Origin: Nitrososphaerota archaeon
GTDB taxonomy: Archaea > Thermoproteota > Nitrososphaeria > Nitrososphaerales > Nitrosopumilaceae
DNA: 24,890 nucleotides
Direction of reading: 5' to 3'
NCBI GenBank assembly: GCA_022574415.1
Contig: JACZSC010000008.1
Span: 1 to 24,890 of the forward strand
In this document: in pieces, positions 7,290-24,410 of the stretch
Layout of the letters: each line of letters begins with the position of its first letter
How positions within the stretch are numbered: position 1 is the stretch's first letter
Notes under the pieces: generated by a model
What the model saw: the letters and a program-made list of their open reading frames with translations, nothing else
Told to the model about the DNA's origin: nothing
The model's database searches: none
Program-made: the position numbers and the translations under genes

Positions 7290-7304
7290 GTTCGTATCGA
7301 ATGT
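7290..7304 (+). repeat. GTTCGTATCAAATGT-family motif copy (GTTCGTATCGAATGT)
   Basis: One mismatch to the consensus. Intergenic, upstream of the left Fic-flanking direct repeat. Confidence 0.8.
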
Positions 7305-7312
7305 GAGCGGTT

Positions 7313-7350
7313 CTATTGAGACTCCGACCAGTTTTGGTATTATTTTAGAC
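7313..7350 (+). repeat. Left copy of ~38-bp direct repeat flanking the Fic gene
   Basis: CTATTGAGACTCCGACCAGTTTTGGTATTATTTTAGAC versus CCATTGAGACCTGCACCATTTATGGGATTATTTTAGAC at 8376-8413. About 30 of 38 positions are identical by eye. Confidence 0.75.
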
Positions 7351-7357
7351 TCAAAAA

Positions 7358-8242
7358 TCAAAGATATCTTCTGTATTCCTTGATGTATCTTTTTATGAGC
7401 CATTGAAGGAATATTCTTTCCTCGTTTTTCACCTGTGATCTTTCCAAGGCATTATAGTAGCTATTTCTTCCCTCATATGGAATATCAAGCATTGGATAGT
7501 TTTTCCTGTTAAGGATAAAGTTCATGACAAGCCTGGTAATCCTGCCATTTCCATCACCGAATGGATGTATTGTAACAAATTTCAGATGTGCCAGTGCAGC
7601 AAGCTCAACTGGATGAATCTTATTCTTGCTTTTGTGGTACCATTTGAAAAAATCTGTCATCATAGGGTATACCTTTACGGGTGAAGGAGGCATGAACTTG
7701 CTACCGCTAATTGCTACTTGGTATTTTCTTATCTTTCCAGAGATGTCGGGTTTTGTCAGATGGAAAAGCTCCCAGTGCCAGTCCAGTATTTCCTGCAATG
7801 ACAAGTCTTTTTTCTGTTTTAGAATTTTATAGAACAGATCCCTGTGGGCCTCGGCTTCTTGTACATCTCTCATTGGTTTGCCTTTTGGTGCAATGCCCCT
7901 TTCCAGAAGATCTGCTGTTTCTCTTCTGGTGAGTGTTGATCCTTCTATCCTTTGGGTATCGTATGTAAATCTGGTGGCAAAATTTTGCAGCTCTTTTTCT
8001 TTGATAGATTTTGGTGCTGCCCTTTGCTCTTTGTAAAAGTGCTTTTTGATTGTATCAATATCATCGTACCATTTTTCTTTGTAGATATCATCAAGAAATT
8101 TTTTCTTGATCTTGATGATGTTTTTTGGGATTTTCGTGCCAAGGTAGAGCTCCTTTTTCTGTACCTTTTTGCCGTCCCTCGTGCTATGTTCTAAATAGTA
8201 GTAGATCTTTTTCTTGAGTATCTTCTTTTTTATGGTAACCAT
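7358..8242 (-). CDS. fic: Fic/DOC-family protein (AMPylase-type)
   Basis: 294-aa ORF containing the canonical Fic active-site motif HPFGDGNGRITR (HxFx[D/E]GNGRxxR). Confidence 0.9.
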   Translation of the reverse strand: MVTIKKKILKKKIYYYLEHSTRDGKKVQKKELYLGTKIPKNIIKIKKKFLDDIYKEKWYDDIDTIKKHFYKEQRAAPKSIKEKELQNFATRFTYDTQRIEGSTLTRRETADLLERGIAPKGKPMRDVQEAEAHRDLFYKILKQKKDLSLQEILDWHWELFHLTKPDISGKIRKYQVAISGSKFMPPSPVKVYPMMTDFFKWYHKSKNKIHPVELAALAHLKFVTIHPFGDGNGRITRLVMNFILNRKNYPMLDIPYEGRNSYYNALERSQVKNEERIFLQWLIKRYIKEYRRYL

Positions 8243-8300
8243 AATATTGGTTACCCCTACATATTTATATAATTTTCATTTTTACTGAAAATGTAGGGGT
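8243..8300 (-). promoter_or_regulatory. Putative Fic promoter: TATA-like box embraced by inverted repeats
   Basis: ATATTTATATAA (8261-8272) lies about 20-30 nt upstream of the ATG at 8242 on the minus strand. The 10-bp inverted repeat ACCCCTACAT (8253-8262) / ATGTAGGGGT (8291-8300) flanks it. A second palindrome, GGTAACC-N8-GGTTACC (8234-8255), covers the start codon. Confidence 0.4.
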
Positions 8301-8375
8301 AAGAATCCGCCAGGATTTAGTTCTACTCCCTAACAGTCATATTCCCTGTATAGGAATTGAACTAAATGGTTGAAT

Positions 8376-8413
8376 CCATTGAGACCTGCACCATTTATGG
8401 GATTATTTTAGAC
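8376..8413 (+). repeat. Right copy of ~38-bp direct repeat flanking the Fic gene
   Basis: See 7313-7350. Confidence 0.75.
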
Positions 8414-8422
8414 CCGTTAACG

Positions 8423-8464
8423 GTTCGTATCAAATGTAATTCAGGTCTAAACGAATTTATCGAT
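8423..8464 (+). repeat. 42-bp flank sequence 'X' (starts with the GTTCGTATCAAATGT motif), identical copy at 23043-23084
   Basis: GTTCGTATCAAATGTAATTCAGGTCTAAACGAATTTATCGAT is 42/42 identical at both loci. Here it abuts the casposon left end. Confidence 0.95.
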
Positions 8465-8465
8465 T

Positions 8466-8518
8466 ATCGATAAAAAGGCAATCCCCCCCTCTCACGAAGA
8501 AAAATGTGACGGGTAATC
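8466..8518 (+). repeat. Casposon left terminal inverted repeat (TIR-A, left)
   Basis: ATCGATAAAAAGGCAATCCCCCCCTCTCACGAAGAAAAATGTGACGGGTAATC. Its exact reverse complement is at 16908-16960. It contains a C7 run that stands out in AT-rich DNA. Confidence 0.95.
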
Positions 8519-8574
8519 TTCGTAACCTTTTTAGCTGAAATGTGCGTAAACCATGGTAGACCGAGGTAAACAAA

Positions 8575-8844
8575 ATGCCAACAATATCAGCAAAACTGTC
8601 AAAGAAAGAACATGATGCAATTGTTGAATATGCAAATGCTTGTGGAGAAACAGTATCTAATCTTGTAAGAAAGGTAATGTTGACTGAGGCTACCTTCATG
8701 AATGGTTATCATGATTCTATGGATTATCACTATGAGATCACAGTTCCTGATAATGTTTCAGGTGAAGAGGAAGATAGAATTGTTTTAGGTGCCTACAATA
8801 AAATTAGAAGAATTTTAGGTTTGAAAGAGCAAGATGAGATTTAA
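8575..8844 (+). CDS. Small ribbon-helix-helix (CopG/MetJ-like) DNA-binding protein
   Basis: 89-aa ORF. The N-terminus MPTISAKLSKKEHDAIVEYANACGETVSNLVRKVM fits a beta-strand/helix/helix RHH pattern. It is the first gene inside the left TIR. Confidence 0.5.
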   Translation: MPTISAKLSKKEHDAIVEYANACGETVSNLVRKVMLTEATFMNGYHDSMDYHYEITVPDNVSGEEEDRIVLGAYNKIRRILGLKEQDEI

Positions 8845-8847
8845 GAA
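8812..8847 (+). repeat. 36-nt direct repeat (copy 1), 3' end of the RHH gene
   Basis: ATTTTAGGTTTGAAAGAGCAAGATGAGATTTAAGAA versus ATTTTAGGTTTTGAAGAGATAGATGAGATTTAAGAA at 9235-9270 (32/36). A third partial copy, AGGATTTGAAGAAATTAATGAGATTTAA, is at 8853-8880. Confidence 0.8.
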
Positions 8848-8876
8848 TTTTCAGGATTTGAAGAAATTAATGAGAT

Positions 8877-9203
8877 TTAATCTACGATTAGTTGAATCCC
8901 TTGAAGAGATAAACCGAAAATAACCATTCCTAGTGGAATATACTTTGTTTTATAATTCCAATAAACTTCAAAACCTCGATGAACTGGGTCCGTTGCTCCC
9001 TTTGGTGTATGAGCCATCTCAATATATGCAACATCTTTTTCTTCCCATCTTTCAAAACCTTTGTTAATTAGATGCTTAGTTTTCCACTTTTTCCAATTAT
9101 TCTCGGTTGGTTTTTTACCATAATACTTTATCATTAGTATAAACCCAAATATCTCACATGCAATTCCAATCACAGCAATAATTTCAAAAGATTCTAAAAC
9201 CAT
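8877..9203 (-). CDS. Small membrane protein (108 aa)
   Basis: N-terminal hydrophobic helix IIAVIGIACEIFGFILMI and C-terminal helix IPLGMVIFGLSLQGIQLI. It is bracketed by the 36-nt direct repeats. Confidence 0.55.
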   Translation of the reverse strand: MVLESFEIIAVIGIACEIFGFILMIKYYGKKPTENNWKKWKTKHLINKGFERWEEKDVAYIEMAHTPKGATDPVHRGFEVYWNYKTKYIPLGMVIFGLSLQGIQLIVD

Positions 9204-9234
9204 ACGATAGAAATTTGCATTGTATTATCTAAGG

Positions 9235-9270
9235 ATTTTAGGTTTTGAAGAGATAGATGAGATTTAAGAA
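9235..9270 (+). repeat. 36-nt direct repeat (copy 2)
   Basis: See 8812-8847. Confidence 0.8.
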
Positions 9271-9317
9271 CACTGAAAATTTGTCAAAACTTGACGATTA
9301 ATAAAATGAAAATTTAG

Positions 9318-9968
9318 TTAACTCTCTATTTTAGTAATTAATTTTTCAAATATTTCAGATGATCCTCTCAATAATTTGTAAAGTGCATCTATGTTTTGAC
9401 CCCTACTTAGCATTCTACAAGAGTAGGTATTTCCAACACTTTCGTAGCGAGGCTGAATATCTATAGAAAGCCAATCATCTAACCTATCATTATCGCCTTT
9501 AGCAGTAAAATGTAATCTGCTTGTTTGTAATGGTCTGCCTATGATTTCTTCAAAATCTTTTTGTATTCTGGAGTCTTCAGATGCTGCAGATATTGACAAA
9601 ATAGCATTTTTATCACTGATATAATTACTCATACAATCTACTTCGTAAAATCTAACAAATTTTTCAAGATTTGTTTTAAAATCACGATTTGAAACTGAAA
9701 AGAATTCTTTCTGTGCTTCAATTAAATTAGTCACCCGCGGATTATGAAAACCAAAAACTAATTTTGAATAATCTGTATAGAATTCTGTATTTTGTTTTGT
9801 AGCATTAATAGATCCTATGCTTGAAGCAGCCATGTTTTTGTAATTTAGTTGGGTTAAGATATCTGTAATTACTATTCTATCAAGAGGCCAGTAAACACTT
9901 TTCAATCTGATGCCTAATCTTTTATCAATGACCCTTTCTCTTTCAAACACAGGAATTTTTTTTGCCAT
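9318..9968 (-). CDS. Hypothetical protein (216 aa), casposon cargo
   Basis: Clean ORF 6 nt downstream of the wHTH gene on the same strand. No motif recognised. Confidence 0.6.
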   Translation of the reverse strand: MAKKIPVFERERVIDKRLGIRLKSVYWPLDRIVITDILTQLNYKNMAASSIGSINATKQNTEFYTDYSKLVFGFHNPRVTNLIEAQKEFFSVSNRDFKTNLEKFVRFYEVDCMSNYISDKNAILSISAASEDSRIQKDFEEIIGRPLQTSRLHFTAKGDNDRLDDWLSIDIQPRYESVGNTYSCRMLSRGQNIDALYKLLRGSSEIFEKLITKIES

Positions 9969-9974
9969 TGTTTA

Positions 9975-10499
9975 TCAAGTTGTACTTATAGGTTGTTGAT
10001 CCATATTCTCATAAGACATATGTGGTCTAATTTTTTGCCTTAGTGTTCCTACTAGAATAGATTCAAATTTTTCTTTGGTGCGTTCCTTTTCTTGATGATC
10101 TTGTTTTGTGATTTCTTCCCAATCTCTTGCTAGTTTGATTTCTGTTTTATCAGATCCCGACACACTTTCTGTTTTTCTTTCACTAGGATACATTATATCA
10201 AATAAGGAATCAAAAACTAATTCTGGAATGTCTGTGACATCATAATACGAAAAACCTTTATTCCCACTTTTTTCGTAAAAATTCTTTACTAAATTACCGT
10301 CTTGTAATTCGTTTAGTCGAATAGTTAAACTACTGGGACTAAATTGAAATTTTTCTTTTATTTCATTAAATGACATCTTTCCATGTTTTAGCAATGCAAT
10401 CAATAATCCAAGATTTTTTTCATCCGAAATCCCTTTTAGTAAAAGCCTTATTTCCTCAGGCATTTCGTTGGAATAATTTAATAGGGTACTAGAGTACAA
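9975..10499 (-). CDS. Winged-helix (ArsR/MarR-like) DNA-binding protein
   Basis: 174-aa ORF. NLGLLIALLKHGKMSFNEIKEKFQFSPSSLTIRLNELQDGNLVKNF fits an HTH plus wing pattern. Confidence 0.55.
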   Translation of the reverse strand: MYSSTLLNYSNEMPEEIRLLLKGISDEKNLGLLIALLKHGKMSFNEIKEKFQFSPSSLTIRLNELQDGNLVKNFYEKSGNKGFSYYDVTDIPELVFDSLFDIMYPSERKTESVSGSDKTEIKLARDWEEITKQDHQEKERTKEKFESILVGTLRQKIRPHMSYENMDQQPISTT

Positions 10500-10534
10500 T
10501 TTTCTGAATCTCAGTACAATTTCTTGTATTTTGT

Positions 10535-10544
10535 ATATTTATAA
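10535..10544 (+). promoter_or_regulatory. TATA-like box upstream of 10565..11098
   Basis: ATATTTATAA is centred about 25 nt upstream of the GTG start, consistent with a leaderless archaeal transcript. It lies in a 65-nt divergent intergenic region. Confidence 0.3.
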
Positions 10545-10564
10545 TTTGTTATGATATTAATCGT

Positions 10565-11098
10565 GTGAGTGGCCGTTGGGAAAAATACAATCGGAGATTA
10601 GAGAAGGAGTTTGAACCTCTTAAAAGAGTCATGACAATGACTATCTACGGATCGTATTATCCTCAATCAGAAAAAGACTTTCTAATAAGTCAGAGAGATT
10701 TTTTGAGAGACAAAGGATATGAAAATACGAATATTGTAGATGATTATCCTGATCCTGAACCTGATATAACTTCTTTAGAAAAAAGTATAAGATGTTTAGA
10801 ATTTTCTGATGTTAATTTTTTAGTTTTTACTAGAGAAGGAAAACGGTATGGAGTGTCAAGAGAATTAACACATATTGCAACATCAAGTAGAATGATTGAT
10901 AAAATACCTTTTTGTACCGTATTTGAACAAGTTAGAGATGAAAGAGATTCCATACCACCACTGTCTCTTGACGATATAAATAATTCAGGAATTAATAGAC
11001 GAGAATTTGAAACTGAACAACAATTGCAAACTGCTTTATCCCAACAATCTTTTGCAAAACTAAGGAGATTACAAAATACATTAATCAAACGCCTATAA
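10565..11098 (+). CDS. Hypothetical protein (177 aa); weak resemblance to nucleoside 2-deoxyribosyltransferase/TIR-like Rossmann proteins
   Basis: GTG start. The pattern MTIYGSYY ... SDVNFLVFTREGKRYGVSRELTHIA loosely resembles the strand/helix layout and G..xE motif of that fold. Not a secure call. Confidence 0.5.
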   Translation: MSGRWEKYNRRLEKEFEPLKRVMTMTIYGSYYPQSEKDFLISQRDFLRDKGYENTNIVDDYPDPEPDITSLEKSIRCLEFSDVNFLVFTREGKRYGVSRELTHIATSSRMIDKIPFCTVFEQVRDERDSIPPLSLDDINNSGINRREFETEQQLQTALSQQSFAKLRRLQNTLIKRL

Positions 11099-11164
11099 TT
11101 AATCGATATAGTCTTAATGTATAAAGTACCTTAATGTATTTTGAATTGATATAATTCAAAAATA

Positions 11165-12946
11165 TCAAACAGAGTGTTTATCAAAATAATTTAATGATAA
11201 AGGAAATGATTCATTCATAATTTTCTCATCAATAGACTTGATTTGCCCTAACCATAATCTTTTACGATCGGCATTAAGATTAACTTCTCTTTCATATTCT
11301 TTGATCTTACCAATCTCTGAAATGTTATCCTGTAAAATAGAAGAACGAAGTCTAGCACTACGAAGCAATCTAATTTTCATAATTAGTTTTCCATCTTTTT
11401 CATATGTCTGAAGATTTTCAATGTCTCGAGTTCCAAGTCTACCGAGACCACGTTGTTTCCATTTTCCATTATAACGATAAAATCCATTTTGTAAATAGAA
11501 AACATCATCAGCAGTATTCTCAAAAGAAAACTCACCTAATCTATTTGAATCAATATCTAGAAATTTTGTGACGCAAAGACTGTCAGTTGCAAAACTTACA
11601 ACATATCGTTCCAAGCCATATTTTTGCACAAATTTGTATAATTGAGCACGAGTTATGCCTGTAATTGTGGCAAAAATAACAGGATTAAATAAATTTCCTA
11701 TTTTAAATCGAATTCGCTCACCAGTTTTTCCATAGATGGAGTTTAGAATTATTTTAATTGGTAATTGTAGTGGATTCTTGTTTTGTTTTAGTTGTAATCT
11801 TTTTGTGTACATTTTTTCAATAAAATCTTTGAATGGAAAAAATTCTTTATCGGGAATAAATTGAAATGATTTCAAAATTTTATAATTAATGTTTTTACAT
11901 GCTCGTAACTCAGCCAGTGTGCAATAAGTTTGAAACTTTCCTGATGGGAATATAATAATATTATTTGCACGGAAAGGTAATGGTGGAATATATTTACAAT
12001 CAGAAATATTTACTTTAATTTTAAAAAAACCAAGCGTTGCATCACTTTGAATTTTATTTGATGATATCCATTGACCTTTTGTTATATCAGGAATTTTTGT
12101 TAATGCATGTGGATATGCTGAATTAATATCATAAAGATAAGCGGTTCCTATGTAGCCACGTTTTAGAATTTCAAATCTTCCACCAAAGTAACTCCTGTAA
12201 GCTAAATCTTGTATTTCATATGGTATGCAATCAAACTTTGGAATTTCAATATGATTATTGATTAGAACTTTTTCTGCAAGGTAACCAGAACTAATCCATC
12301 GTGCAGGATAAAATGAAAACGCATTATGAAATAAATTTATCCAGTGCTGTGATAATTCTTTAGTATATTTACAATCTGCAATACAATAATTTCTAACTTT
12401 AGTTTTATTTCTGTTATAATATCTTGGTGAAAATTGTGTACGTTCTTTTTTCATTAAAAGATAATCATTAGGTAGATCCTCAATGTTCTGTTGATATGCA
12501 TTAATCAATGAAGTATGATAGAACTGTGCAATATCAAAAAAGATAGAACTATGATGTCCTTTTCTGATGGCTAATTTCCTACTAGGAATATAATCTAGAG
12601 TATAGTCACCATAATGAAATCTCAATAATCCTGTCTTCTTGTAGGAATTGAGCTCTTCACCTAGCAGTTTGAGAATGACTTCAGCATCATAGGTGATATT
12701 ATAGAAAAAGTTCCATGCTCCTTGAAATTTCTTAGAAAATAGGAATTTTAGGCATGATCCAGGCGTGATTTTATCAAGGAATCGGCCATCAGAATCAGCT
12801 ATGAGGAAAGGAGTTCCCTCGTAGGTCTCAGTATCAAGACCATAAACTGTTCTAAGACTAGAACAAGCAAACCGCCTATCTTGATGAACTTTGGTTCGCA
12901 GTCTTCTAAGATCTTTGTAATCTGTTATGGGGATGGATTCTGCCAT
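11165..12946 (-). CDS. polB: Protein-primed family-B DNA polymerase (pPolB)
   Basis: 593-aa ORF. Exonuclease motifs: ExoI YGLDTETY, ExoII NITYDAEVI, ExoIII YCIADCKY. Polymerase motifs: A LYDINSAYP (DxxSxYP), B KIILNSIYGK (Kx3NSxYG), C SFATDSL (variant of YxDTDS). The compact size is typical of protein-primed PolBs. Confidence 0.92.
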   Translation of the reverse strand: MAESIPITDYKDLRRLRTKVHQDRRFACSSLRTVYGLDTETYEGTPFLIADSDGRFLDKITPGSCLKFLFSKKFQGAWNFFYNITYDAEVILKLLGEELNSYKKTGLLRFHYGDYTLDYIPSRKLAIRKGHHSSIFFDIAQFYHTSLINAYQQNIEDLPNDYLLMKKERTQFSPRYYNRNKTKVRNYCIADCKYTKELSQHWINLFHNAFSFYPARWISSGYLAEKVLINNHIEIPKFDCIPYEIQDLAYRSYFGGRFEILKRGYIGTAYLYDINSAYPHALTKIPDITKGQWISSNKIQSDATLGFFKIKVNISDCKYIPPLPFRANNIIIFPSGKFQTYCTLAELRACKNINYKILKSFQFIPDKEFFPFKDFIEKMYTKRLQLKQNKNPLQLPIKIILNSIYGKTGERIRFKIGNLFNPVIFATITGITRAQLYKFVQKYGLERYVVSFATDSLCVTKFLDIDSNRLGEFSFENTADDVFYLQNGFYRYNGKWKQRGLGRLGTRDIENLQTYEKDGKLIMKIRLLRSARLRSSILQDNISEIGKIKEYEREVNLNADRKRLWLGQIKSIDEKIMNESFPLSLNYFDKHSV

Positions 12947-13251
12947 ATAGCATCAGGAATTGAAACTTCTTGTCCTCGCTTTCGTTTTCCAAATTGTCTT
13001 CTAATATCTAAATATTTTAAGTCAGGAAAATTATCTCGGATTAATCTAATGTAACGATGGTATTTTTCTAAAGATGATGAACGTTTACTAACTTTTGGTT
13101 CAGGTGCAACAGTTACTTTTGTTTGTTTTTCTAATCTTTCTAATGCTTTTTGTGTTCTGGAACGAAGTATTCGTACTTCATTATTATTTGGAAATAACTT
13201 TAATGCATCAAGTCTTTTTAAAAGTTTATTTCTTTGTTCTTCTAAACTCAT
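12925..13251 (-). CDS. Hypothetical basic protein (108 aa) immediately upstream of polB
   Basis: Overlaps the polB start by 22 nt, indicating operon coupling. Lys/Arg-rich. No motif recognised. Confidence 0.6.
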   Translation of the reverse strand: MSLEEQRNKLLKRLDALKLFPNNNEVRILRSRTQKALERLEKQTKVTVAPEPKVSKRSSSLEKYHRYIRLIRDNFPDLKYLDIRRQFGKRKRGQEVSIPDAIWQNPSP

Positions 13252-13280
13252 AGTATCACCAAAAAAATATGAAGGTTAGT

Positions 13281-13622
13281 CTAGGTTTTTCCTAGACTAA
13301 ATCTTCGTATTGGTCTATTGTTTCTACTTTTGTCAAGATAGGTCTCGATTGTAAGTTTATCACCAATTTTGATAATGTTGTCTTTACCACCTCTAGTCCA
13401 CTGATTTAGGAGTGAACTGTTTTTTGATTCATGGCTTTTTAGAGGAACAACAATTGTATTCCATTTGTTATTCTCAAAGATTTCAGCTTCAACATTGATA
13501 GAATATTCTGTTTCAAATGTTTCAAGCTCTTTTACACGAATCTTTATTGTGTCTGGTTTGTCTTTGTCTTTGCTTTTGTATTGCCCCCACTTTAAAAAAG
13601 GAGGATAAAGAGAATCACTCAT
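13281..13622 (-). CDS. Hypothetical protein (113 aa), polB operon
   Basis: Its start overlaps the stop of the upstream AbrB-like gene by 4 nt (ATGA). The sequence looks beta-rich. No motif recognised. Confidence 0.6.
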   Translation of the reverse strand: MSDSLYPPFLKWGQYKSKDKDKPDTIKIRVKELETFETEYSINVEAEIFENNKWNTIVVPLKSHESKNSSLLNQWTRGGKDNIIKIGDKLTIETYLDKSRNNRPIRRFSLGKT

Positions 13623-13822
13623 TTTGGAATTCTCCTTTTTGTTTTGATGGGAGTTAGAATCAATCTCCCATCTTGTGACATGGAAACATTTACTTCCATG
13701 TTTTTACTGAGATAGTTCTCAGTGAATGTCTTGGGCAAAGTTACCACTTTAGAAAAATTCATGGTACTGACTTTTCTTGTGCCCAAGTCTAGATTTTTGA
13801 CTATGGATTTTACTTTAGACAT
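13619..13822 (-). CDS. AbrB/SpoVT/MazE-like swapped-hairpin DNA-binding protein
   Basis: 67-aa ORF. SKVVTLPKTFTENYL...VSMSQDGRLILTPI matches the (V/I)T(I/L)PK ... G.(I/L)(I/L)L.P pattern of AbrB-type domains. It is the first gene of the leftward polB operon. Confidence 0.5.
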   Translation of the reverse strand: MSKVKSIVKNLDLGTRKVSTMNFSKVVTLPKTFTENYLSKNMEVNVSMSQDGRLILTPIKTKRRIPK

Positions 13823-13872
13823 ATTATGCTGTTAGTAAATACCTTAAAATGGGATACTAATGTAGCCCACTT

Positions 13873-16907: not shown

Positions 16908-16960
16908 GATTACCCGTCACATTTTTCTTCGTGAGAGGGGGGGATTGCCTTTTTATCGAT
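16908..16960 (-). repeat. Casposon right terminal inverted repeat (TIR-A, right)
   Basis: Exact reverse complement of 8466-8518. Subterminal direct sub-repeats (C/T)ATAACGTG x2 lie at 16887-16908. Confidence 0.95.
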
Positions 16961-16961
16961 T

Positions 16962-17040: not shown

Positions 17041-17051
17041 AAAGGTTAACA

Positions 17052-17066
17052 GCTCGTATCAAATGT
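17052..17066 (+). repeat. GTTCGTATCAAATGT-family motif copy (GCTCGTATCAAATGT)
   Basis: One mismatch. Preceded by GTTAACA, as the 8423 copy is preceded by GTTAACG. Confidence 0.8.
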
Positions 17067-17104
17067 TAATTAGAATAAAAAAGAGAAAGGATTTTAGGTT
17101 CTGA

Positions 17105-17572
17105 TTACGGAGCTGGTCTCATCGAAACATCTGCGTTTCCAAATCCGCCACCTGAAACCCAGAAGTTTTGTACTCCATTAAATGCATTACCGTCAATGTC
17201 CTTGGTGTTTATTGCTACAACGACTTTGTGTGTGGAACCATCACTAAATGCTGCTTCAAAAACCACAATGCCCATACCAGTACTGGTAGGACCGCCTGGT
17301 GGACAACACATGACGGTGATCAATTTGGTTGCGTGCCAATTACCTGAAGTACTTGTAGCAGCAAATGAACCTCCTGCTCCTATTTGGCCACCCTTTTTCC
17401 AAGCTCCTTGACCCGACATATCGATTCTTGGCGTGTCCCCATCCGAGAAACTAAAGGCTACAGCGCCTTTTGGAGTCGGAGAGGGAGCGTAAGCTTGTTG
17501 TGCCGAAAAGAGAAGCATGATGGCTATTCCAGCAATTATGGATGCTATTAGAATTGTTTTTGCCATGCCCAA
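17105..17572 (-). CDS. Small secreted/anchored Gly-rich protein (155 aa)
   Basis: N-terminal helix MGMAKTILIASIIAGIAIMLLF. Visibly more GC-rich than its neighbours. No motif recognised. Confidence 0.65.
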   Translation of the reverse strand: MGMAKTILIASIIAGIAIMLLFSAQQAYAPSPTPKGAVAFSFSDGDTPRIDMSGQGAWKKGGQIGAGGSFAATSTSGNWHATKLITVMCCPPGGPTSTGMGIVVFEAAFSDGSTHKVVVAINTKDIDGNAFNGVQNFWVSGGGFGNADVSMRPAP

Positions 17573-17684
17573 CCGATCACTTGATCCTGAGACTAATTAA
17601 TGATGATCTAATGTGATTCATTTCATAATTTCATTATAACGCTAGTCATGAGGCATAAACCGTTCATCAAATGTCTCATTTACA

Positions 17685-17699
17685 GTTCGTATCAAATGT
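17685..17699 (+). repeat. GTTCGTATCAAATGT motif copy, with degenerate copy CGTTCATCAAATGT at 17661-17674
   Basis: Exact consensus in tandem with a degenerate copy 24 nt upstream. Confidence 0.8.
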
Positions 17700-17819
17700 C
17701 AACAGAATTACCGAACTGTCTACTCTTTTAAGACCCACCCCATTTTTGGTTTTAATTTGGAACCTATCTAAGCAAATTTTATTCCGGGTCTAGAAAATTA
17801 TCAAACATTTCTTTTGTTC

Positions 17820-18431
17820 TTAGTATATAGTTCTACGGTCCAATCTGTCTTGTTCCATTATCTTTAAGATTTTTTCAAAAGCTTTTGTAGAAAATGAATA
17901 CATGTCAAGCAGAGTAAGATATCGTTCATCCCTTTTATGGTCTTTCATCCATTCATTTAATCGTTCAGTAGTATGCGTAGCAAGACTTCTAGTAGAAGTT
18001 ATTAATTTGTTATGTGTATGTAAAATCTTAGAATCAATTTCAAGTATCAAACGCTCTAGTGCTAATTTTTCTTGGAAAGCTTCTACTTTATCTAACTGTT
18101 CCCTTAGTCTAGAGCGTTGAATGTCTAATCTTTGAAGATGGATTAGAACTTCAGTTGTAGAATCAAAAGTATTTCCATTTACTATAATTTTTGAATACCA
18201 GTAATCAATATCGCCGTTAACAGTATTGCGATTAATTTTCATAAGTTCGGCAATCTTTCTTGCTGAATATCCATAGTCAAAATGAAGTCGGTAGACTTCT
18301 TTTCTTCTAGAATCTCTTTCATTTTTAGAATATGGACCACCTTTTTTGAGATTTGGTACAGTTTGAGATAGTTTTTCATTTTCGTCTAAAAAATCAGAAG
18401 TTACTTGAGGTAATTTACTCATGATTTCCAA
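17820..18431 (-). CDS. Putative HTH DNA-binding protein (203 aa)
   Basis: YGYSARKIAELMKINRNTVNGDIDYW is a helix-turn-helix-like segment, followed by a coiled-coil-like C-terminal half. Confidence 0.5.
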   Translation of the reverse strand: MEIMSKLPQVTSDFLDENEKLSQTVPNLKKGGPYSKNERDSRRKEVYRLHFDYGYSARKIAELMKINRNTVNGDIDYWYSKIIVNGNTFDSTTEVLIHLQRLDIQRSRLREQLDKVEAFQEKLALERLILEIDSKILHTHNKLITSTRSLATHTTERLNEWMKDHKRDERYLTLLDMYSFSTKAFEKILKIMEQDRLDRRTIY

Positions 18432-18702
18432 ACTCCTCGCACACCACCGATACTATACTTTTTTCACCAAGTTCTGGTTGCGTCATTCTTTTCAGTTCAT
18501 AAAGTGCAACAAAAAATTCTTCTTTTTTGTATTGTATCATTATTTGCGATCCTAAATTATCATATTTTTCAATTAGTTTGTCAAAATTCTGCAAAGATTT
18601 TAAATCATAACCATTACCATGATTAAAATGTCCTACAAATGATTGCAATGTTTCAAATGTTCTATTGTATTCACTGACAAGTTCATGAAGATTCATGCTC
18701 AT
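18415..18702 (-). CDS. Hypothetical protein (95 aa)
   Basis: Overlaps the downstream HTH gene by 17 nt, indicating operon coupling. No motif recognised. Confidence 0.5.
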   Translation of the reverse strand: MSMNLHELVSEYNRTFETLQSFVGHFNHGNGYDLKSLQNFDKLIEKYDNLGSQIMIQYKKEEFFVALYELKRMTQPELGEKSIVSVVCEEFGNHE

Positions 18703-18748
18703 TTTATGTATGTAAAGTATTAATACTAATCTACACTATAACTGCATA

Positions 18749-19738
18749 TTGTATTTTGTGACGACGTATCTAAGAATCGTTGATGAACTAAAAGCAGTTT
18801 ATTCAATCCCTCCTGATCCGCGCATCATAGAAAGAGAACTCAATAAAATACGATGGAGAGACGCTAAAACAAAGCATTTCCTTGCTATCCTTAAAGTACT
18901 ATCAGAAAAAGGCTCGTGTACCATCAAGGATATCGTTGATAATGATGGATTTTCAAGATCCTCAAATCGTGTAAAAGCTCGTCAAGATATGTATTCTAGG
19001 ATGATAAATGGTAAGTTATCACAGAAAATTCCTGGCCTAATTTCTCGCTTCCTAGTAGTTGAAGATGGAACTATCATGAAAAGCAAACCTACAACAAAGT
19101 ACAAGCTTTCTCTTTTTGGCATTCTTTATTCAATTCGTGTATTTTCAAACATCAATACAAGAATTGCTCCACAGGTAAAACATGAAGAAACTATAGAGAT
19201 AAAAGACAATAGTGGTTCTTCTAGTGAATCAGAGATTAAATCTATTCTGGATGTACTGGCTAAAAATTATGTAGAGACGTTACCATTAATTTTTGGAAAA
19301 TGGAATTTTTGGAAAAATAATTTTGGAAGTCTAGTTGATTATCTTGCGTCCATGTCTAGATTGAACAAGGATTCATTAGAAAATTTGATTACTGATCCGT
19401 TGTACAACGTTAGGCCATTTCATATGTATTATGGTATGCGTAAACAATCTGGTCGTGCAGATGAAGTAACAATGTGGTTCATAACAAAGATTGAAAACAG
19501 TATTTCGCATCCAAAAAAATTTAGAACTACGTTGAAAAAAGACACTGATATTTTTAGATGGTATTCTGAATTTATAGCAAAGTTACTAATGGTAAAGAAA
19601 GAGGAAATCTGGCGAATCAAGACAGTTGAGTACATGCTAAAGGGTGAATTTGAAAAGCTTGGAAGCGTATCAGAAAAACTATTAAAGTTTCAAGGACTCG
19701 ACATTACAGAAGATAAGGTTAGTACTCTTCTCTATTAA
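18749..19738 (+). CDS. Hypothetical protein (329 aa), possible N-terminal wHTH
   Basis: TTG start as given by the ORF track. HFLAILKVLSEKGSCTIKDIVDN is HTH-like. Otherwise unrecognised. Confidence 0.55.
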   Translation: MYFVTTYLRIVDELKAVYSIPPDPRIIERELNKIRWRDAKTKHFLAILKVLSEKGSCTIKDIVDNDGFSRSSNRVKARQDMYSRMINGKLSQKIPGLISRFLVVEDGTIMKSKPTTKYKLSLFGILYSIRVFSNINTRIAPQVKHEETIEIKDNSGSSSESEIKSILDVLAKNYVETLPLIFGKWNFWKNNFGSLVDYLASMSRLNKDSLENLITDPLYNVRPFHMYYGMRKQSGRADEVTMWFITKIENSISHPKKFRTTLKKDTDIFRWYSEFIAKLLMVKKEEIWRIKTVEYMLKGEFEKLGSVSEKLLKFQGLDITEDKVSTLLY

Positions 19739-19955
19739 AGAACTAATTCGCCAAAAAATAAATTATGAATATATGAAACTCATACTTATTTTAATTTAAA
19801 AAGACAGCGATCCGATCAGAACTATTTTGCGAGGTGAGTAACGCAAACAAAATAACTGTTTTAGAATTTAGTATACGATGCGTTTTATTATTTCAATTAT
19901 AATTTTCAAAAAATGGCATAGTTTGGCATAGTTATGATAACGAGGCAGTCGATTC

Positions 19956-20255
19956 CTATTTCGTAGTAATCGATTTTCCTTCTTCGGAAATGGCTTTTTT
20001 GATTAAGGAAGAACTATCTTTCATGATTTTGTTAAATTCTTGAATATCCTCAAGATCAGGAGTTTTTTTCTGATTTTGATATGTTTTCATAAATTCAGAA
20101 TAAACATTACCTACAATAATTCCAAAGGTAGTATCCGATACGGATTCAATTTCCGGAACAAAATCTTCTGCAATTTGCTTGTACGAGGACACCTCATCAG
20201 TATAGTACTGAATTAAATTTTCAATGAACTCTTTAGTTTCCTTTGAAATTGCCAT
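19956..20255 (-). CDS. Hypothetical acidic protein (99 aa)
   Basis: Clean ORF with no motif. Confidence 0.5.
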   Translation of the reverse strand: MAISKETKEFIENLIQYYTDEVSSYKQIAEDFVPEIESVSDTTFGIIVGNVYSEFMKTYQNQKKTPDLEDIQEFNKIMKDSSSLIKKAISEEGKSITTK

Positions 20256-20304
20256 CGTTCTACCTAAATGCGACTGGTTTATTTAATTACATTCCAAATT
20301 TTGT

Positions 20305-20766
20305 TTGACGATGTGGAAGCTTGAATTGGATGAAAATTATTTTCGAATTTTTGATTCTAAAAAACAAATTGCAGGTTATTTTGATCCTGATTATGGTGAA
20401 ATCAATCCTCCAGAAAAAGAAACCGAATTAATTGAACAGATGCACAAAAATCGAGAAAAAATAAACGGCGGCTTGCTAATGGTTCCAATGTTAAAGTTTG
20501 GAATATTTGATTCAGACTATGAATCTGATATTGCAGGTTTACAAAAGCAAATAGATTTGGTGAATGAGCGACTTTTTAAGTGGAAAGAATTCCTTTCTGA
20601 AACAAATAACCATGCCCATTCAATTAGAATCTCTCACACTGATCAAGATATGCTAAGTATTACAATACCTTTCAAATTTTCAAAACCTACTCCTTTAGAT
20701 AAAAATGAAATTCTAAATGAAATCGAACCTATCTTAAATTTAATGCACAAACGAGATTTGGTATAG
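20305..20766 (+). CDS. Hypothetical protein (153 aa)
   Basis: TTG start in the track (ATG two codons later). No motif. The 3' end overlaps the convergent gene by 38 nt. Confidence 0.45.
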   Translation: MTMWKLELDENYFRIFDSKKQIAGYFDPDYGEINPPEKETELIEQMHKNREKINGGLLMVPMLKFGIFDSDYESDIAGLQKQIDLVNERLFKWKEFLSETNNHAHSIRISHTDQDMLSITIPFKFSKPTPLDKNEILNEIEPILNLMHKRDLV

Positions 20767-21484
20767 ATCTGCTTGCATATCTTGTCAAGATTACGTATGT
20801 AGAAACAGAACCAGCTAATAATAACAAAGAACCAAAAGGAAATTCTGGAACTGGCGCAAATTCTTCCGATTCAGTCACTAGTGCATAATCAACTATCATG
20901 TTAGTTTGTGTTTTTTCTGTCACTGGAATTAAAAAGAAAACCTCATCATTTGATTTGAGATAATCAGGCTTGACCAATGATTTTGACACCGCAGCAACAT
21001 TTCCATCTTTATCATATAGTGTAGCAATAATTGCAATTGTATTTGCTGTAATATCGCCTCTATTTACAACGGTTCCAGTAATCACCAAGTTGTTAAAACT
21101 ATCTTGTGAAATCTTGGATGAAGTAATGTCCATCACTTGACTTTTAGGCGTTGTCACTTTGTAATCGATTTCAATGGAATAACTATCCACCAATTTTGCT
21201 TTTTGACCCAAAATTACTAGGTCAAAAGGGGCCTTCATGCCAGGCATTATTGTGTTAATCATGGAACTTGTAGTCATCGTATCAATTACCTCATTTTCAG
21301 AAAACAACGTCACATGAATAACAATCTGGTTTAGTGGCATATCAAAATAATTTAGAATTTCTCCAACAACATGTAATGCCCCATCACTGCCAAGATATTG
21401 CTGATCATTTTGGATTGAAACATCTGCCCATGCATTAGAAAAACCAAACAATATTGAGATAACCAAAAAAAGATATTTTTTCAA
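20729..21484 (-). CDS. Secreted protein with PEF/PEFG-CTERM-like archaeosortase sorting signal
   Basis: Signal peptide MKKYLFLVISILFGFSNAWA. The C-terminus PVPEFPFGSLLLLAGSVSTYVILTRYASRS has the motif, TM helix and basic tail. Confidence 0.75.
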   Translation of the reverse strand: MKKYLFLVISILFGFSNAWADVSIQNDQQYLGSDGALHVVGEILNYFDMPLNQIVIHVTLFSENEVIDTMTTSSMINTIMPGMKAPFDLVILGQKAKLVDSYSIEIDYKVTTPKSQVMDITSSKISQDSFNNLVITGTVVNRGDITANTIAIIATLYDKDGNVAAVSKSLVKPDYLKSNDEVFFLIPVTEKTQTNMIVDYALVTESEEFAPVPEFPFGSLLLLAGSVSTYVILTRYASRSIPNLVCALNLR

Positions 21485-21517
21485 TAATTAACTTTCTGTT
21501 TATTTTATTTAAAGAAG

Positions 21518-22012
21518 TTATGGGCTGATTCCTTGCTGTGCCGCTTTGTATTTTCCTAATGCTGCGATTTCATATTCAAAAGATTCCTGAAAAAGTGAGT
21601 CGGAATGAATCTTGAATGACTCATCACCAATCTCGATCCATTTTATGTACTGCATATTACTTTCAATTTGCGTTTCAGTTGATAATTTGAAAAGATCAAC
21701 CGATGCAATAAAGGACTCTGGGGATGTTAATTCATCATATTTTGGCAAAAGTGTTTCTAAATCTAGAATATTTTTTTGAGAAAATCCTAATAGCTGTTCT
21801 TTGGTCAAATCTCCTTCTTGCCACTGAACTGTCTTTGATTCAAAATCATTTTGTAATCTTTTCACTTCATCTTGAATCTGTTGTAGTTCATTCCCAAAAT
21901 TGAACCCTTTAATCTTTACCTGATCTGCAGAGTAATTGTAGGAAATGAAAGCAACTAAAATAACTGTTGCAATTACGGCTAACGTAATATTTTGCTTCTT
22001 TCTTTTTTTCAA
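21518..22012 (-). CDS. N-terminally anchored hypothetical protein (164 aa)
   Basis: MKKRKKQNITLAVIATVILVAFISY anchor helix. No other motif. Confidence 0.6.
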   Translation of the reverse strand: MKKRKKQNITLAVIATVILVAFISYNYSADQVKIKGFNFGNELQQIQDEVKRLQNDFESKTVQWQEGDLTKEQLLGFSQKNILDLETLLPKYDELTSPESFIASVDLFKLSTETQIESNMQYIKWIEIGDESFKIHSDSLFQESFEYEIAALGKYKAAQQGISP

Positions 22013-22065
22013 AACTAATCTATGATATTTGAATTTATATGTGATATTAACGCAAGGATAATAAT

Positions 22066-22109
22066 CTAAGAATTAAGAATTTTCAGGATTAATAGTTCGT
22101 ATCAAATGT
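22066..22109 (-). repeat. Composite repeat (AATCCTGAAAATTCTTAATTC motif + GTTCGTATCAAATGT motif), inverted partner of 23918-23960
   Basis: The reverse complement ACATTTGATACGAACTATTAATCCTGAAAATTCTTAATTCTTAG matches ACATTGATACGAATTGTTAATCCTGAAAATTCTTAATTCTTAT, with 1 indel and 3 mismatches. Confidence 0.85.
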
Positions 22110-22153
22110 AAAAGTGATAAAAAATAGATGAAACACTATACTATTGAAAAGCA

Positions 22154-22984
22154 TTGACATACCAACCATATGAGGGCAAAATTATTTATCAGAAAAACCT
22201 GACCGATGATCTTGCAATATTTAGACTTGAACTATCAGATAAGAGCAAAATATTAGATTTCAAGCCAGGTCAATTTGTACCGCTAGGAGTGAAAATAAAA
22301 GACAAGGTGGCGTACAGAGCTTACTCGATTTCATCACCTCCTGAAGAAAGAAGATATTATGAATTTTACATCAGATGGGCAACAAAGCCGGTTTTAGGTA
22401 AAATAACCAGCGCTCTTTTTACTTTGAAAAAAAATAAGCTTATCTTCTGGCGAAAACCTGCAGGAGTTTTTACCATCGAAGATAAAAAACCGAATGGAAC
22501 CACTGAGAGTAGGCAGATGATTCTCGTTTCTTCAGGAACAGGTATTGCCCCATTTATCAGCTACATACTACACTTGAGAAAAGTAGGTTCGAAAAGAAAG
22601 ATCGTTTTGCTTCATGGTGCCAAATATGTTGCAGAGTTAGGTTACAAAAATATGCTTGAAAGACTAGCATCTGAAACTAGAGACAATTGGGATTTCACCT
22701 ACATACCTACGGTTAGCCAGCTGGATCATCCCTCATCTACGGGGTGGACAGGAAATGTTGGACGAGTGGGTGACTTACTAATAGATATCGACAATCACAG
22801 GTCAGAACTAGAAAAAAAATTAGGAAAAAATGTCACTCCAAAAAATTCATTCTTTTACATTTGCGGATACAATAATACAATAAATAGAGTCATTTCATTT
22901 TTGACCCCACTAGGTTTTGTTTCCAATCGAAATAAAAGAAAAGACGGATCCTTTGACATAAAGTCTGAATCATACGGAGAGTAA
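22154..22984 (+). CDS. Ferredoxin-NADP+ reductase-type FAD/NAD(P)-binding oxidoreductase
   Basis: 276-aa ORF (TTG start in the track). FAD-binding RAYSISS (RxYS) motif, NAD(P)-binding VSSGTGIAPF motif and C-terminal FYICGY-type motif. Confidence 0.8.
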   Translation: MTYQPYEGKIIYQKNLTDDLAIFRLELSDKSKILDFKPGQFVPLGVKIKDKVAYRAYSISSPPEERRYYEFYIRWATKPVLGKITSALFTLKKNKLIFWRKPAGVFTIEDKKPNGTTESRQMILVSSGTGIAPFISYILHLRKVGSKRKIVLLHGAKYVAELGYKNMLERLASETRDNWDFTYIPTVSQLDHPSSTGWTGNVGRVGDLLIDIDNHRSELEKKLGKNVTPKNSFFYICGYNNTINRVISFLTPLGFVSNRNKRKDGSFDIKSESYGE

Positions 22985-23042
22985 TCTTCTAAATAATTAT
23001 CTTTGAAATTTGATTATTCAGACTAGAACAAATCTGTTGACA

Positions 23043-23084
23043 GTTCGTATCAAATGTAATTCAGGTCTAAACGAATTTATCGAT
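23043..23084 (+). repeat. Second copy of 42-bp flank 'X'
   Basis: 42/42 identical to 8423-8464. Confidence 0.95.
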
Positions 23085-23165
23085 AAAGAGTGAAAATAGA
23101 ACTTCCCTCTCCGACGCACAAATTCCTATTATAACTATCGTTATGACGTGAGTTTGTTTTGTTGG
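23079..23165 (+). repeat. Solo casposon-type end (TIR-B'), related to 16962-17040
   Basis: ATCGATAAAGAGTGAAAATAGAACTTCCCTCTCCGACGCACAAATTCCTATTATAACTATCGTTATGACGTGAGTTTGTTTTGTTGG aligns along its length with TIR-B (shared CGACGCAC/CCACGCAC, CGTTATGACGTGAGTT, TTTGTTGG). No partner end and no cas1/polB are nearby. Confidence 0.8.
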
Positions 23166-23483
23166 AGATTTGAAAAAAGAAAAACAACGATTAAACTAAA
23201 AAAATAGAGTAAAATGTCTATTCAATAGTATTTTAAAAGATACCAATTCTGTTGTAATACATTGCCAGAACATACTAAAGAATGTGAGTATAGAATCACT
23301 CATGACTTTAGGCATGATAACTGTTTTTGTGAATGTCATGACAAAGGGAAGTATCATGGAAGAATTACCAAAAATGTTAGAAAAAGCAATACCAATACTA
23401 CAAAAGCAAGCAAAGATTAGTTAGGCAACTTAATTTGTTTTTCTAAATCTCGTAATTTCCTTGATAAATTATCACAATTCCTC

Positions 23484-23527
23484 TAAGTTCTAAATTATCT
23501 TTTTGTAATCCTGAAAATTCTTAATTC
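23484..23527 (+). repeat. cas1-3'-end-like relic fused to AATCCTGAAAATTCTTAATTC motif
   Basis: TAAGTTCTAAATTATCTTTTTGT (cf. TTAGATTCTAAACTCTTTTTGT at 15771-15792) is followed directly by AATCCTGAAAATTCTTAATTC (23507-23527). Confidence 0.7.
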
Positions 23528-23623
23528 ATTTCTGAAATAAATGTCGAATTAGGTCATTTTGTTAGATTTCAGTGGGTATTGCCTTTTATTGAGAGTAAAA
23601 AGACAAAGCACTAGGAATAAGAT

Positions 23624-23773
23624 ATGAAGTACATGTGTAGAACCTGTAAAAAAAAATGTGATGATATTATAGAACATTTGATGACAGTACACAAATTTTC
23701 AAAAACAACTATAGAATCTCAACTCAAAGCAAACCCAAATAGTTTTAACCATGCCTTTGAAAAATTAGAATAA
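23624..23773 (+). CDS. Possible mini zinc-finger protein (49 aa)
   Basis: MKYMCRTCKKKCDDIIEHLMTVHKF... has CxxC...HxxxH spacing like a C2H2 finger. It is below the ORF-track size cut-off and was found by manual translation. Confidence 0.35.
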   Translation: MKYMCRTCKKKCDDIIEHLMTVHKFSKTTIESQLKANPNSFNHAFEKLE

Positions 23774-23788
23774 ACATTCAATACGAAC
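23774..23788 (-). repeat. GTTCGTATCAAATGT-family motif copy (GTTCGTATTGAATGT on minus strand)
   Basis: The plus strand reads ACATTCAATACGAAC. Confidence 0.7.
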
Positions 23789-23917
23789 TGTTACAGAGTC
23801 TTTTTTTCTTTGAAATGGCTATTTGAAACACGGAAGCTGATAGCGTGCTTTGAATAACGCAACACGTTTATTCATTTGCTTGACTAATGTACCTCATGTC
23901 TTGTTGGCTTCCGTCTA

Positions 23918-23960
23918 CATTGATACGAATTGTTAATCCTGAAAATTCTTAATTCTTATG
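23918..23960 (+). repeat. Composite repeat, inverted partner of 22066-22109; also left arm of a ~25-bp inverted pair with 24357-24382
   Basis: See 22066-22109. TAATCCTGAAAATTCTTAATTCTTA versus the reverse complement of 24357-24382, TAATTCTGAAAATTCTTAATTCTTAA. Confidence 0.85.
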
Positions 23961-24398: not shown

Positions 24399-24410
24399 TT
24401 TATTTAGGTC

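Follow-up and report, generated by a model that had tools for sequence, protein, structure and literature searches.

A 24,890-nt stretch of DNA from a member of the Nitrosopumilaceae (contig JACZSC010000008.1; hereafter the window) carries a recurrent 15-mer, GTTCGTATCAAATGT, which forms the center of a 26-bp dyad site, (C)ATTAACAGTT-CGTATC-AAATGT(T/A)AAT. We give a probability of about one half to the reading that the site serves site-specific recombination and marks the borders of mobile gene modules. This reading is carried by the anatomy of the site, its organization into arrays of small modules in related genomes, and the reassortment of those modules between its copies.

The recurrence of the 15-mer, reported by a first-pass annotation made from the sequence alone, is real. 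At up to three mismatches it occurs seven times in the window against 1.19 expected, a number reached in none of 100 shuffles. Exact copies start at 8423, 17685, 22095, and 23043, and copies with one mismatch at 7290 and 17052, all on the + strand; the - strand has one copy with two mismatches, at 23774. Two further copies that had been listed are genuine though damaged: the one at 23918 (-) has lost a single nucleotide (ATTCGTATCAA-TGT), and the one at 17661, 24 nt from the 17685 copy, survives as a remnant whose spacer lacks 2 nt (GTTC--ATCAAATGT). The 23918 and 22095 copies, each taken with its adjacent promoter motif, form a common 39-nt inverted repeat of 95% identity. Two other proposed copies, at 6730 and 15601, were dropped since only 8–9 of their 15 bases match, which is chance level. 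As the annotation stated, every window copy falls outside credible genes and the host-like left part (1–6700) contains none; the island in the window is divided by six good and three decayed copies of the site.

In the site, an asymmetric spacer of 6 bp separates two arms of 10 bp, which are inverted copies of each other at 8–9 of 10 positions. The GTTRAC(R) noticed earlier in front of several copies is also genuine and forms part of the left arm. Among 116 copies free of selection by the search pattern, conservation extends from -6 to +18 and then ends, with mirror symmetry about the spacer, and the arm pattern fits in both orientations at 155 of 197 sites. Since no conserved flanks exist beyond these limits, the 26 bp are the whole element and not the end of something longer. 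Folded as a single strand it reaches only -0.5 to -3.5 kcal/mol, with z-scores near 0 for the majority of window copies, no better than shuffles; this indicates a double-stranded dyad site and not a hairpin element. Solo half-sites were found only in chance-level numbers, so the site always appears whole. Minor spacer classes with the same arms, TTAATG (six copies) and GTTATG (five copies), compare with about 0.02 copies each estimated by chance. These variant sites (in the sampled loci, L004:~6000, L015:~3555, L053:4593, L060:2375, L089:1328, and L094:~490) usually abut a normal site in opposite arm orientation, giving double sites.

Two inverted arms of about 11 bp around a 6-bp spacer are the layout of dif-type sites, and the 26-bp site has it. 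Escherichia coli dif is split into a XerC and a XerD arm, and the right arm of our site, AAATGTTAATT, matches the XerD arm at 8 of 11 positions, a post-hoc comparison in AT-rich DNA. The same arm agrees at 9 of 11 positions with the XerD arm of Acinetobacter pdif, TTATGTTAATT (PMC13141974), again post hoc and in AT-rich DNA, and the spacer CGTATC agrees with the pdif spacer CGTGTA at 4 of 6. The 11-6-11 layout is also that of the Pyrococcus abyssi and bacterial dif sites; the P. abyssi dif, ATTGGATATAA-TCGGCC-TTATATCTAAA (PMC2958812), matches our site poorly in sequence. A 12-2-12 reading, the layout typical of serine recombinase sites, is possible as well.

Module arrays and reassortment between genomes

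In order to count the site beyond the window, one genome per species was scanned for TTNAYRGTTCGTATCAAATGT; all distribution counts given here are among the matches listed. At least 95 matching tiles were obtained, nearly all from metagenome-assembled genomes (MAGs) of Nitrosopumilales/Thaumarchaeota, where about 4 were estimated by chance for such specificity. Six Nitrosopumilales MAGs carry at least 68, 47, 43, 37, 22, and 18 copies, respectively, and a few other genomes carry one or two. The site-rich lineages are NPMR_NP_theta_1/2 and iota_1, B51T1B5, B12T1B11, and B2D1T2. In the 512 kb of listed tiles there are 245 copies at up to two mismatches, and 245 of 252 copies (97%) are intergenic. 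A viral origin was ruled out, as 2.9 million viral contigs gave no match. The first-pass annotation had associated the motif with a variable island, and here the copies do bound the modules of the island; the site is nevertheless not specific to this island, with dozens of copies per genome, some of them beside core genes.

Neighboring copies are strongly co-oriented (141 pairs against 15 opposed, or 90%) and are spaced by a median of 597 bp (interquartile range 345–1088), usually with one small accessory gene between them. In a typical module, a promoter precedes a single accessory gene, which is followed by a T-rich terminator and then by the site. Inter-site distances span 68 to >3,400 bp with genes in between, which is not the regular array of CRISPR repeats. 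The genes adjacent to sites are short (median about 100–110 aa) and 304 of them fall into 180 clusters; the cargo includes glyoxalase, DoxX, SnoaL-like, PNPOx, cupredoxin, and pterin-4a-carbinolamine dehydratase proteins, a stand-alone AsnC ligand-binding domain, and a response regulator. The larger neighbors are ordinary core genes, and a Pfam survey of 126 neighboring proteins returned mostly core metabolism, so the arrays are scattered through the chromosome and not attached to one platform.

Comparison of loci by blastn disclosed that alignment ends accumulate at both edges of the site. Only one flank is homologous in 63 pairs of copies, and both flanks are in 2. Within the one-flank pairs, the arm on the homologous side is 0.88–0.89 identical against a background of 0.65–0.68, while the far arm is at background; the switch in homology therefore lies inside the invariant core. 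Eleven segments that run from site to site are found again in other genomes, and maps of module order place the same modules between different neighbors in different genomes. Discrete modules bounded by dif-like sites are thus found in different contexts, as in dif-module systems. In one case, a locus of MAG B12T1B11 (L047) has a single site where the theta_1 genome (L094) has two sites around a three-module block of 4.1 kb; TGTAAAC, a variant of the arm, remains attached to the right (downstream) flank.

The window takes part in these exchanges. Its site S5 and the start of the oxidoreductase gene that follows are 95% identical in a second locus (L046), while the DNA upstream of the site differs. 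A site-free core of 6.2 kb (941–7184) is collinear with a locus of MAG NPMR_NP_theta_1 (L010:1708–8000) at 87.5% identity, and beyond the 7184-side end of this shared core the two genomes diverge at the same point into different site-bearing DNA. This places the window in a close relative of that Nitrosopumilales lineage. Besides the genes for a pentapeptide-repeat protein and a 115-aa protein, the core carries a glycosyltransferase-like open reading frame (ORF) and one of 922 aa whose product may be polysaccharide deacetylase-like. Of the two options offered by the first-pass annotation, an operator or a recombination/target site at module boundaries, the second is favored by the homology switch inside the site, the reassortment of modules, and the insertion/deletion (indel) with duplicated sites.

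We infer that the exchange is an enzymatic, site-specific reaction carried out by a host-encoded tyrosine recombinase through circular intermediates. A recombinase dimer would bind both arms and exchange strands within the conserved center. Two direct copies would recombine to release the intervening DNA as a circle with one site, and the circle could then insert at any chromosomal copy, leaving a site on each side. Inverted copies, here S6 relative to S7 and S8, would invert the segment between them. Alternatively, a serine recombinase might act by reading the site as 12-2-12.

Points against a dedicated recombination site and competing explanations

Several observations weigh against this reading, one of them a control. 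A second dispersed motif of the window, M2 (CCTGAAAATTCTTAATTC; seven copies, three of which have an ATG 22–23 nt downstream), looks like a B recognition element/TATA (BRE/TATA) promoter for leaderless mRNAs. As a 20–25-nt motif, TAATCCTGAAAATTCTTAATTCTTAG, it has about 113 copies in related loci, and it is located both inside the casposon described below and in host modules. Alignment ends accumulate in much the same way at M2 copies, homology there is likewise one-sided, and one locus (L087) is a chimera in which DNA upstream of the window's M2 copy at 15274 is fused to DNA downstream of the copy at 23510. Recombination at short conserved repeats thus needs no dedicated site in these genomes, and junctions of this kind are not unique to the 15-mer. 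This weakens the pile-up of alignment ends as proof of site-specific exchange; junction pile-ups, one-sided homology, reassortment, and the indel alone do not prove an enzyme-specific reaction at the 15-mer.

No recombinase could be linked to the sites. The window encodes no integrase besides Cas1, and a regular-expression screen combined with phmmer (E. coli XerD query) found one tyrosine recombinase gene in about 537 kb around the sites, 1.6 kb from three of them in locus L074. We judge this to be about the background rate. Its best NCBIfam match is XerA_Arch (archaeal XerA), far below threshold. The family was rejected as a linked enzyme: across three contigs and 36 metagenome loci, sites occur only near its closest relatives, a pattern that we attribute to the density of sites in those genomes and not to a true link. 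Thaumarchaea have moreover been reported to lack xerA (Cortez et al. 2010). The family, seen at L074:7215–8000, in P0001–P0007, and in the first ~230 nt of L107–L127, is a divergent group of tyrosine recombinases, 424 aa long and extended at the C terminus by a coiled coil. Its distant members have a conserved GTGACTTTATCGGCTCGGTCTTTAAGTAAC just upstream of the gene, and many metagenome contigs end about 200 nt upstream of the gene, as at a repeat or variable junction.

The remaining points on this side concern sampling and position. Loci entered the sample by way of the motif, so the sample is biased toward site-bearing DNA. Read as ACATTTGATACGAAC, the site usually has a same-strand gene stop 0–40 nt upstream, often behind a T-rich tract, a position that would also suit a role at transcript 3' ends. 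In intervals with a single dominant ORF (n = 87), the gene follows the orientation of the site 58:29, or about 2:1. The arrays are dispersed among core genes, and the mechanism as proposed does not account for the seeding of new loci. Neighboring sites shared a spacer variant in no case against 0.6 expected, a comparison with no power.

In the main alternative, which we consider unlikely but well ahead of the others, the site would be a "punctuation" element bound by a dimeric protein (terminator-associated, an insulator, or the target of a global regulator), its copies being passive substrates of homologous recombination. Dyad symmetry suits a dimeric regulator equally well, and the position behind a stop codon and T-rich tract and ahead of the next promoter is that of a boundary element. 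The 2:1 co-orientation with genes, the 26 copies at a fixed offset upstream of an M2 promoter, the recombination junctions at M2, and the failure of the search around sites to give a linked recombinase all fit it. Nevertheless, the site carries about 33 bits summed per position, compared with about 15 bits estimated to be enough for some 100 sites per genome, and its 6-bp spacer is conserved like the arms and in discrete classes. Site–site co-orientation (90%) is far above site–gene co-orientation (67%), so that orientation is a property of the array and not of the gene. The next start codon is at no fixed distance in 90% of copies, the flanking genes have no common function, and the site is never truncated, whereas M2 includes truncated copies.

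An operator or upstream activating sequence for an island- or casposon-encoded regulator, the other option of the first-pass annotation, is largely refuted by distribution and we regard it as very improbable. The distances it rested on are correct: read in reverse, the motif lies 132, 181, 113, 83, and 45/189 nt upstream of the window gene starts at 7158, 8242, 17572, 22012, and 23977, respectively. The motif also abuts a promoter motif at 22070–22113 and 23914–23955, and the casposon encodes ribbon-helix-helix (RHH) and winged helix-turn-helix (wHTH) proteins that could supply the regulator. An operator would be expected at a fixed promoter position in a coherent regulon, but a promoter motif stands at a fixed offset in only 26 of 252 copies, and the distance to the next start codon, 45–189 nt in the window, ranges broadly elsewhere. 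The site is abundant on many contigs of the six related MAGs, including genomes and contigs with no casposon, beside functionally unrelated genes and core genes. Neither the casposon nor the viral contigs contain a copy.

A selfish interspersed repeat, of the repetitive extragenic palindrome/bacterial interspersed mosaic element (REP/BIME) or miniature-transposon kind, with the rearrangements as by-products, also appears improbable, although slightly less so than the operator. Bacterial BIMEs are mosaics of short elements, and our site likewise occurs in dozens of near-identical extragenic copies at gene 3' ends, in mosaics with the short conserved elements M2 and M4. Contig ends also have slightly more copies nearby than expected (19 against 12.8, P=0.03), which points the same way. 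Against this, the site forms at best a weak hairpin, neither conserved ends nor duplications were seen in its flanks, and no transposase was seen near the sites. Alleles in which the flanks are joined minus the bare site were absent from the loci sampled, which were chosen for carrying the motif, so that sampling favored site-bearing DNA. Co-oriented arrays with one gene between copies are not the pattern of REP elements.

The M4 element is a dispersed sequence of about 40 nt (consensus approximately GGTCTAAAATAATCCCAAAAATGGTCTGGGTCTCGATGGATTC) with alternative GGTC/GACC pairings, and it often adjoins the dif-like site on either side. It occurs in many loci, for example L007:473–546 and L027:4075–4149.

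Casposon A and the layout of the window

A family-1-type casposon, casposon A, occupies the center of the window (Table 1). Its terminal inverted repeats, about 47 nt long and 98% identical, start at 8472 and end at 16954, and the dif-like site is absent from the element. The 22-bp versions of the motif at 8416–8437 and 17045–17066 do flank the casposon plus a B-type end, as had been described. On the recombination-site reading, the motif seems to bracket the element because casposon A inserted into a short module that holds its target and lies between two sites.

Base-by-base reading of the ends shows a perfect 13-bp direct repeat, ATCGATTATCGAT, which contains a palindrome and directly abuts both terminal repeats. 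The family-1 casposase of Candidatus Nitrosopumilus koreensis likewise makes a 13-bp duplication (ATTGATAAAGAGT) and requires a TTT leader, just 3 bp (PMC8464041). In the window TTT precedes the 13-mers at 8459 and 23079, both of them junctions on the leader side; the 13-mer at 23079 is a second, nearly identical target (TTT-ATCGATAAAGAGT-GAAAA, 23079–23091) occupied by a decayed terminal repeat. The 13-mers at 8459, 16955, and 23079 thus fit the duplication of family-1 casposases; the 15-mer does not. It was therefore rejected as the target-site duplication, standing 21 nt to the leader side of both targets and about 77 nt beyond the solo B-type terminal repeat instead of abutting terminal repeats.

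The idea that the 15-mer is a casposon duplication or recognition sequence multiplied by serial insertions draws on its length, which is near that of casposon duplications, on its flanking of the casposon, and on the constant 21 nt to the target at 8423, at 23043, and in locus L026. As a duplication it is refuted by the 13-bp ATCGATTATCGAT, which abuts both repeats and matches the N. koreensis ATTGATAAAGAGT with its TTT leader (PMC8464041). The N. koreensis casposase needs just 3 bp of leader (PMC8464041), and more than 240 copies elsewhere adjoin no casposon end. We therefore regard this explanation as having next to no chance of being right.

The ATCGATAAAGAGT target is one base off the experimentally defined N. 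koreensis target, and both read in frame as ...F-I-D-K-E-stop with only synonymous differences. The leader is itself readable as the 3' end of an ef-2-like gene (...FIDKE and stop), which is suggestive only. These readings give hints that the casposon target may mimic or derive from the 3' end of a gene.

The junctions of casposon ends with the site recur elsewhere: terminal repeat followed by site in L005, L012, and L024, and site, leader, target, and terminal repeat in L026. Casposon ends and modules have therefore been interleaved repeatedly. Solo B-type ends with no casposon body (16968–17044 and 23092–23170 in the window; L005:1760–1845, L012, L024:693–904, and L026:1088–1259) are in every case linked either with a site that lies about 77 nt into the repeat or, on the outside, with leader plus site. 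From their arrangement, casposon ends appear to be carried around as parts of modules.

Table 1. Sites, modules, and associated features of the window (positions 1 to 24,890)
Feature	Position	Strand	Description
Site S1	7283–7308	+	CGTTGGCAGTT-CGTATC-GAATGTGAGCGG; core with 1 mismatch, outer arms degenerate; 54 nt past the stop of the - strand Fic gene
Fic/DOC single-gene module (S1 to S2)	7309–8415	-	Gene 7358–8242; an M4 element at each end
M4 copies	7328–7351, 8391–8414, 17740–17763	-	Also in many other loci
Site S2	8416–8441	+	GTTAACGGTT-CGTATC-AAATGTAATT; exact core; casposon leader, then target duplication, to its right
Casposon target	8438–8471	+	21-nt leader AATTCAGGTCTAAACGAATTT (8438–8458) and 13-bp duplication ATCGATTATCGAT (8459–8471)
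Casposon A, family-1-type	8472–16954	-	Cas1 15771–16850; protein-primed-type PolB 11165–12946
M2 copies	15127–15144, 15274–15291, 23510–23527, 23938–23955	+	Copy 23938–23955 predicted to drive gene 23977–24315
M2 copies	8838–8855, 22070–22087, 24361–24378	-	Copy 22070–22087 directed at gene 21518–22012
Target-site duplication, right copy	16955–16967	+	ATCGATTATCGAT, 13 bp
Solo B-type casposon terminal repeat	16968–17044	+	Remnant of an older insertion
Site S3	17045–17070	+	GTTAACAGCT-CGTATC-AAATGTTAAT; core with 1 mismatch, perfect 6–7 bp outer dyad; directly after the solo B-type end
Single-gene module	17071–17677	-	155-aa predicted secreted/membrane protein, 17105–17572; stop 39 nt before S3
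Degenerate site remnant	17661–17675	+	2-nt spacer deletion; 24 nt from S4
Site S4	17678–17703	+	ATTTACAGTT-CGTATC-AAATGTCAAC; exact core
Multi-gene segment (S4 to S5)	17704–22087	mixed	4.4 kb, seven ORFs, including a helix-turn-helix protein (17820–18431)
Site S5	22088–22113	+	Exact core; adjoins M2 promoter motif (22070–22087, -)
Oxidoreductase single-gene module	22114–23035	+	Ferredoxin-NADP-reductase-like, 22154–22984
Site S6	23036–23061	+	Exact core; second casposon leader and target copy follow
Second casposon target	23058–23170	+	Leader 23058–23078, target ATCGATAAAGAGT 23079–23091, decayed B'-type terminal repeat 23092–23170
Site S7	23770–23795	-	Inverted relative to S1–S6; 2 mismatches; spacer CGTATT
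Site S8	23914–23939	-	Inverted, degenerate, 1-nt deletion; adjoins M2 promoter 23938–23955

Under the recombination-site reading, the window would be an ordered series of units: S1 with the Fic module, S2 with a casposon-target module invaded by casposon A beside an older solo B-type end, S3 with the module of the 155-aa protein, S4 with the 4.4-kb multi-gene segment, S5 with the oxidoreductase module, and S6 with a second casposon-target module and its decayed end, followed by the inverted S7 and S8. As to RNA genes that might serve as integration targets, the window gave neither a tRNA nor an Rfam family.

Other features were noted in passing. The helix-turn-helix protein of the multi-gene segment belongs to a type of 203–232 aa that in two genomes stands immediately upstream of a site (window 17820–18431, -; L007:4115–4810), with an N-terminal pattern GGPY.K.E....V..LHF....S...IAEL..(I/V)NRNT...DI.YW, a long helical tail, and only weak Pfam matches (Sigma70_r4_2, HTH_23). 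A repeat at gene 3' ends, TTAGATTCTAAACTCTTTTT, occurs at 15549–15568, 15771–15790, and 24305–24324 (+) and at 24383–24402 (-), including across the Cas1 stop, and is probably a shared terminator region. At the left edge of the window, the gene of the 614-aa pentapeptide-repeat protein (105–1949, -) gives 15-nt periodic DNA repeats, and a 66-nt periodic repeat at 24440–24890 probably belongs to a coiled-coil gene leaving the right edge.

Relation to known recombination systems

Functionally, the archaeal system is closest to the dif modules of Acinetobacter and also resembles integron arrays, and it is a member of neither. The dif modules, which depend on XerC/XerD and are known from Rep_3 plasmids and recently from chromosomes, likewise have sites of 26–28 bp with two inverted arms and a 6-bp spacer, and the right arms, compared post hoc, are nearly the same in sequence (AAATGTTAATT and TTATGTTAATT). 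There too, the sites bound small, discrete accessory-gene modules that are reshuffled between replicons by crossovers inside sites, with the recombinase not encoded beside the modules. In contrast, the two arms of the archaeal site resemble each other, which suggests one recombinase rather than XerC plus XerD. The archaeal sites are direct (141:15) and not alternating C/D and D/C, they lie in chromosomes beside core genes and not on plasmids, and their spacer is nearly invariant where that of Acinetobacter is variable. For these archaea, unlike Acinetobacter, a Xer enzyme is neither known nor was one found in the DNA sampled around the sites.

With integrons (attC/IntI; for archaeal integrons see Ghaly et al. 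2022, PMC9668308) the system shares arrays of co-oriented, mostly single-ORF units of short length (median about 600 bp), a recombination site just past the stop codon, and small, diverse accessory cargo in cassettes whose order differs across genomes. The site itself differs, being a 26-bp double-stranded dyad where attC is an imperfect palindrome of 55–140 nt defined by its hairpin structure; conservation here covers 25–26 nt and the window has no Rfam match. No adjacent integrase, attI, or common promoter was found at the archaeal arrays. Many of the archaeal units have their own promoter, and the arrays are dispersed instead of occupying one platform.

The arm-spacer-arm dimensions (10/11-6-10/11 bp) are further shared with chromosomal dif, with archaeal XerA/dif, and with integrative mobile elements exploiting Xer (IMEX) such as the CTX phage, whose integration also leaves the element between two site copies. 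Chromosomal dif is, in contrast, a single copy near the terminus that serves dimer resolution, whereas the archaeal site is present in tens per genome (at least 18–68 per MAG) with one-gene units between copies. REP elements and BIMEs are short, abundant, and extragenic, sit at gene 3' ends, and form mosaics with other short motifs, all of which the archaeal site does as well; it differs from them in lacking a stable hairpin, in its co-oriented arrays with one gene between copies, and in its module-level indels.

Taken more broadly, and with somewhat less than even confidence, this clade of marine ammonia-oxidizing archaea may possess a chromosomal gene-cassette system built on the 26-bp dif-like site, served by an unlinked recombinase and interleaved with casposons. 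Small, self-expressed accessory-gene modules would be inserted, excised, and reshuffled at the site. With the casposon target inside one module and the site about 77 nt inside B-type ends, casposons could pick up and carry modules. In the incomplete library that was searched, we found no paper with the site sequence or with such cassettes in ammonia-oxidizing archaea, and a recent survey of the flexible islands of Nitrosopumilaceae mentions neither recombination sites nor recombinases.

In the ocean, few archaea are as abundant as the Nitrosopumilaceae, and the construction of their flexible genome is poorly understood. If the reading holds, a 26-bp site at module junctions would be a searchable marker of their flexible gene pool and would offer a testable mechanism of gene gain and loss. 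The principle of modules bounded by dif-like sites would extend from Acinetobacter plasmids to archaeal chromosomes, as an archaeal, direct-repeat counterpart of the bacterial dif modules and integrons. It would also explain the local anatomy around a family-1 casposon, suggesting a route by which DNA could be exchanged between casposons and host cassettes.

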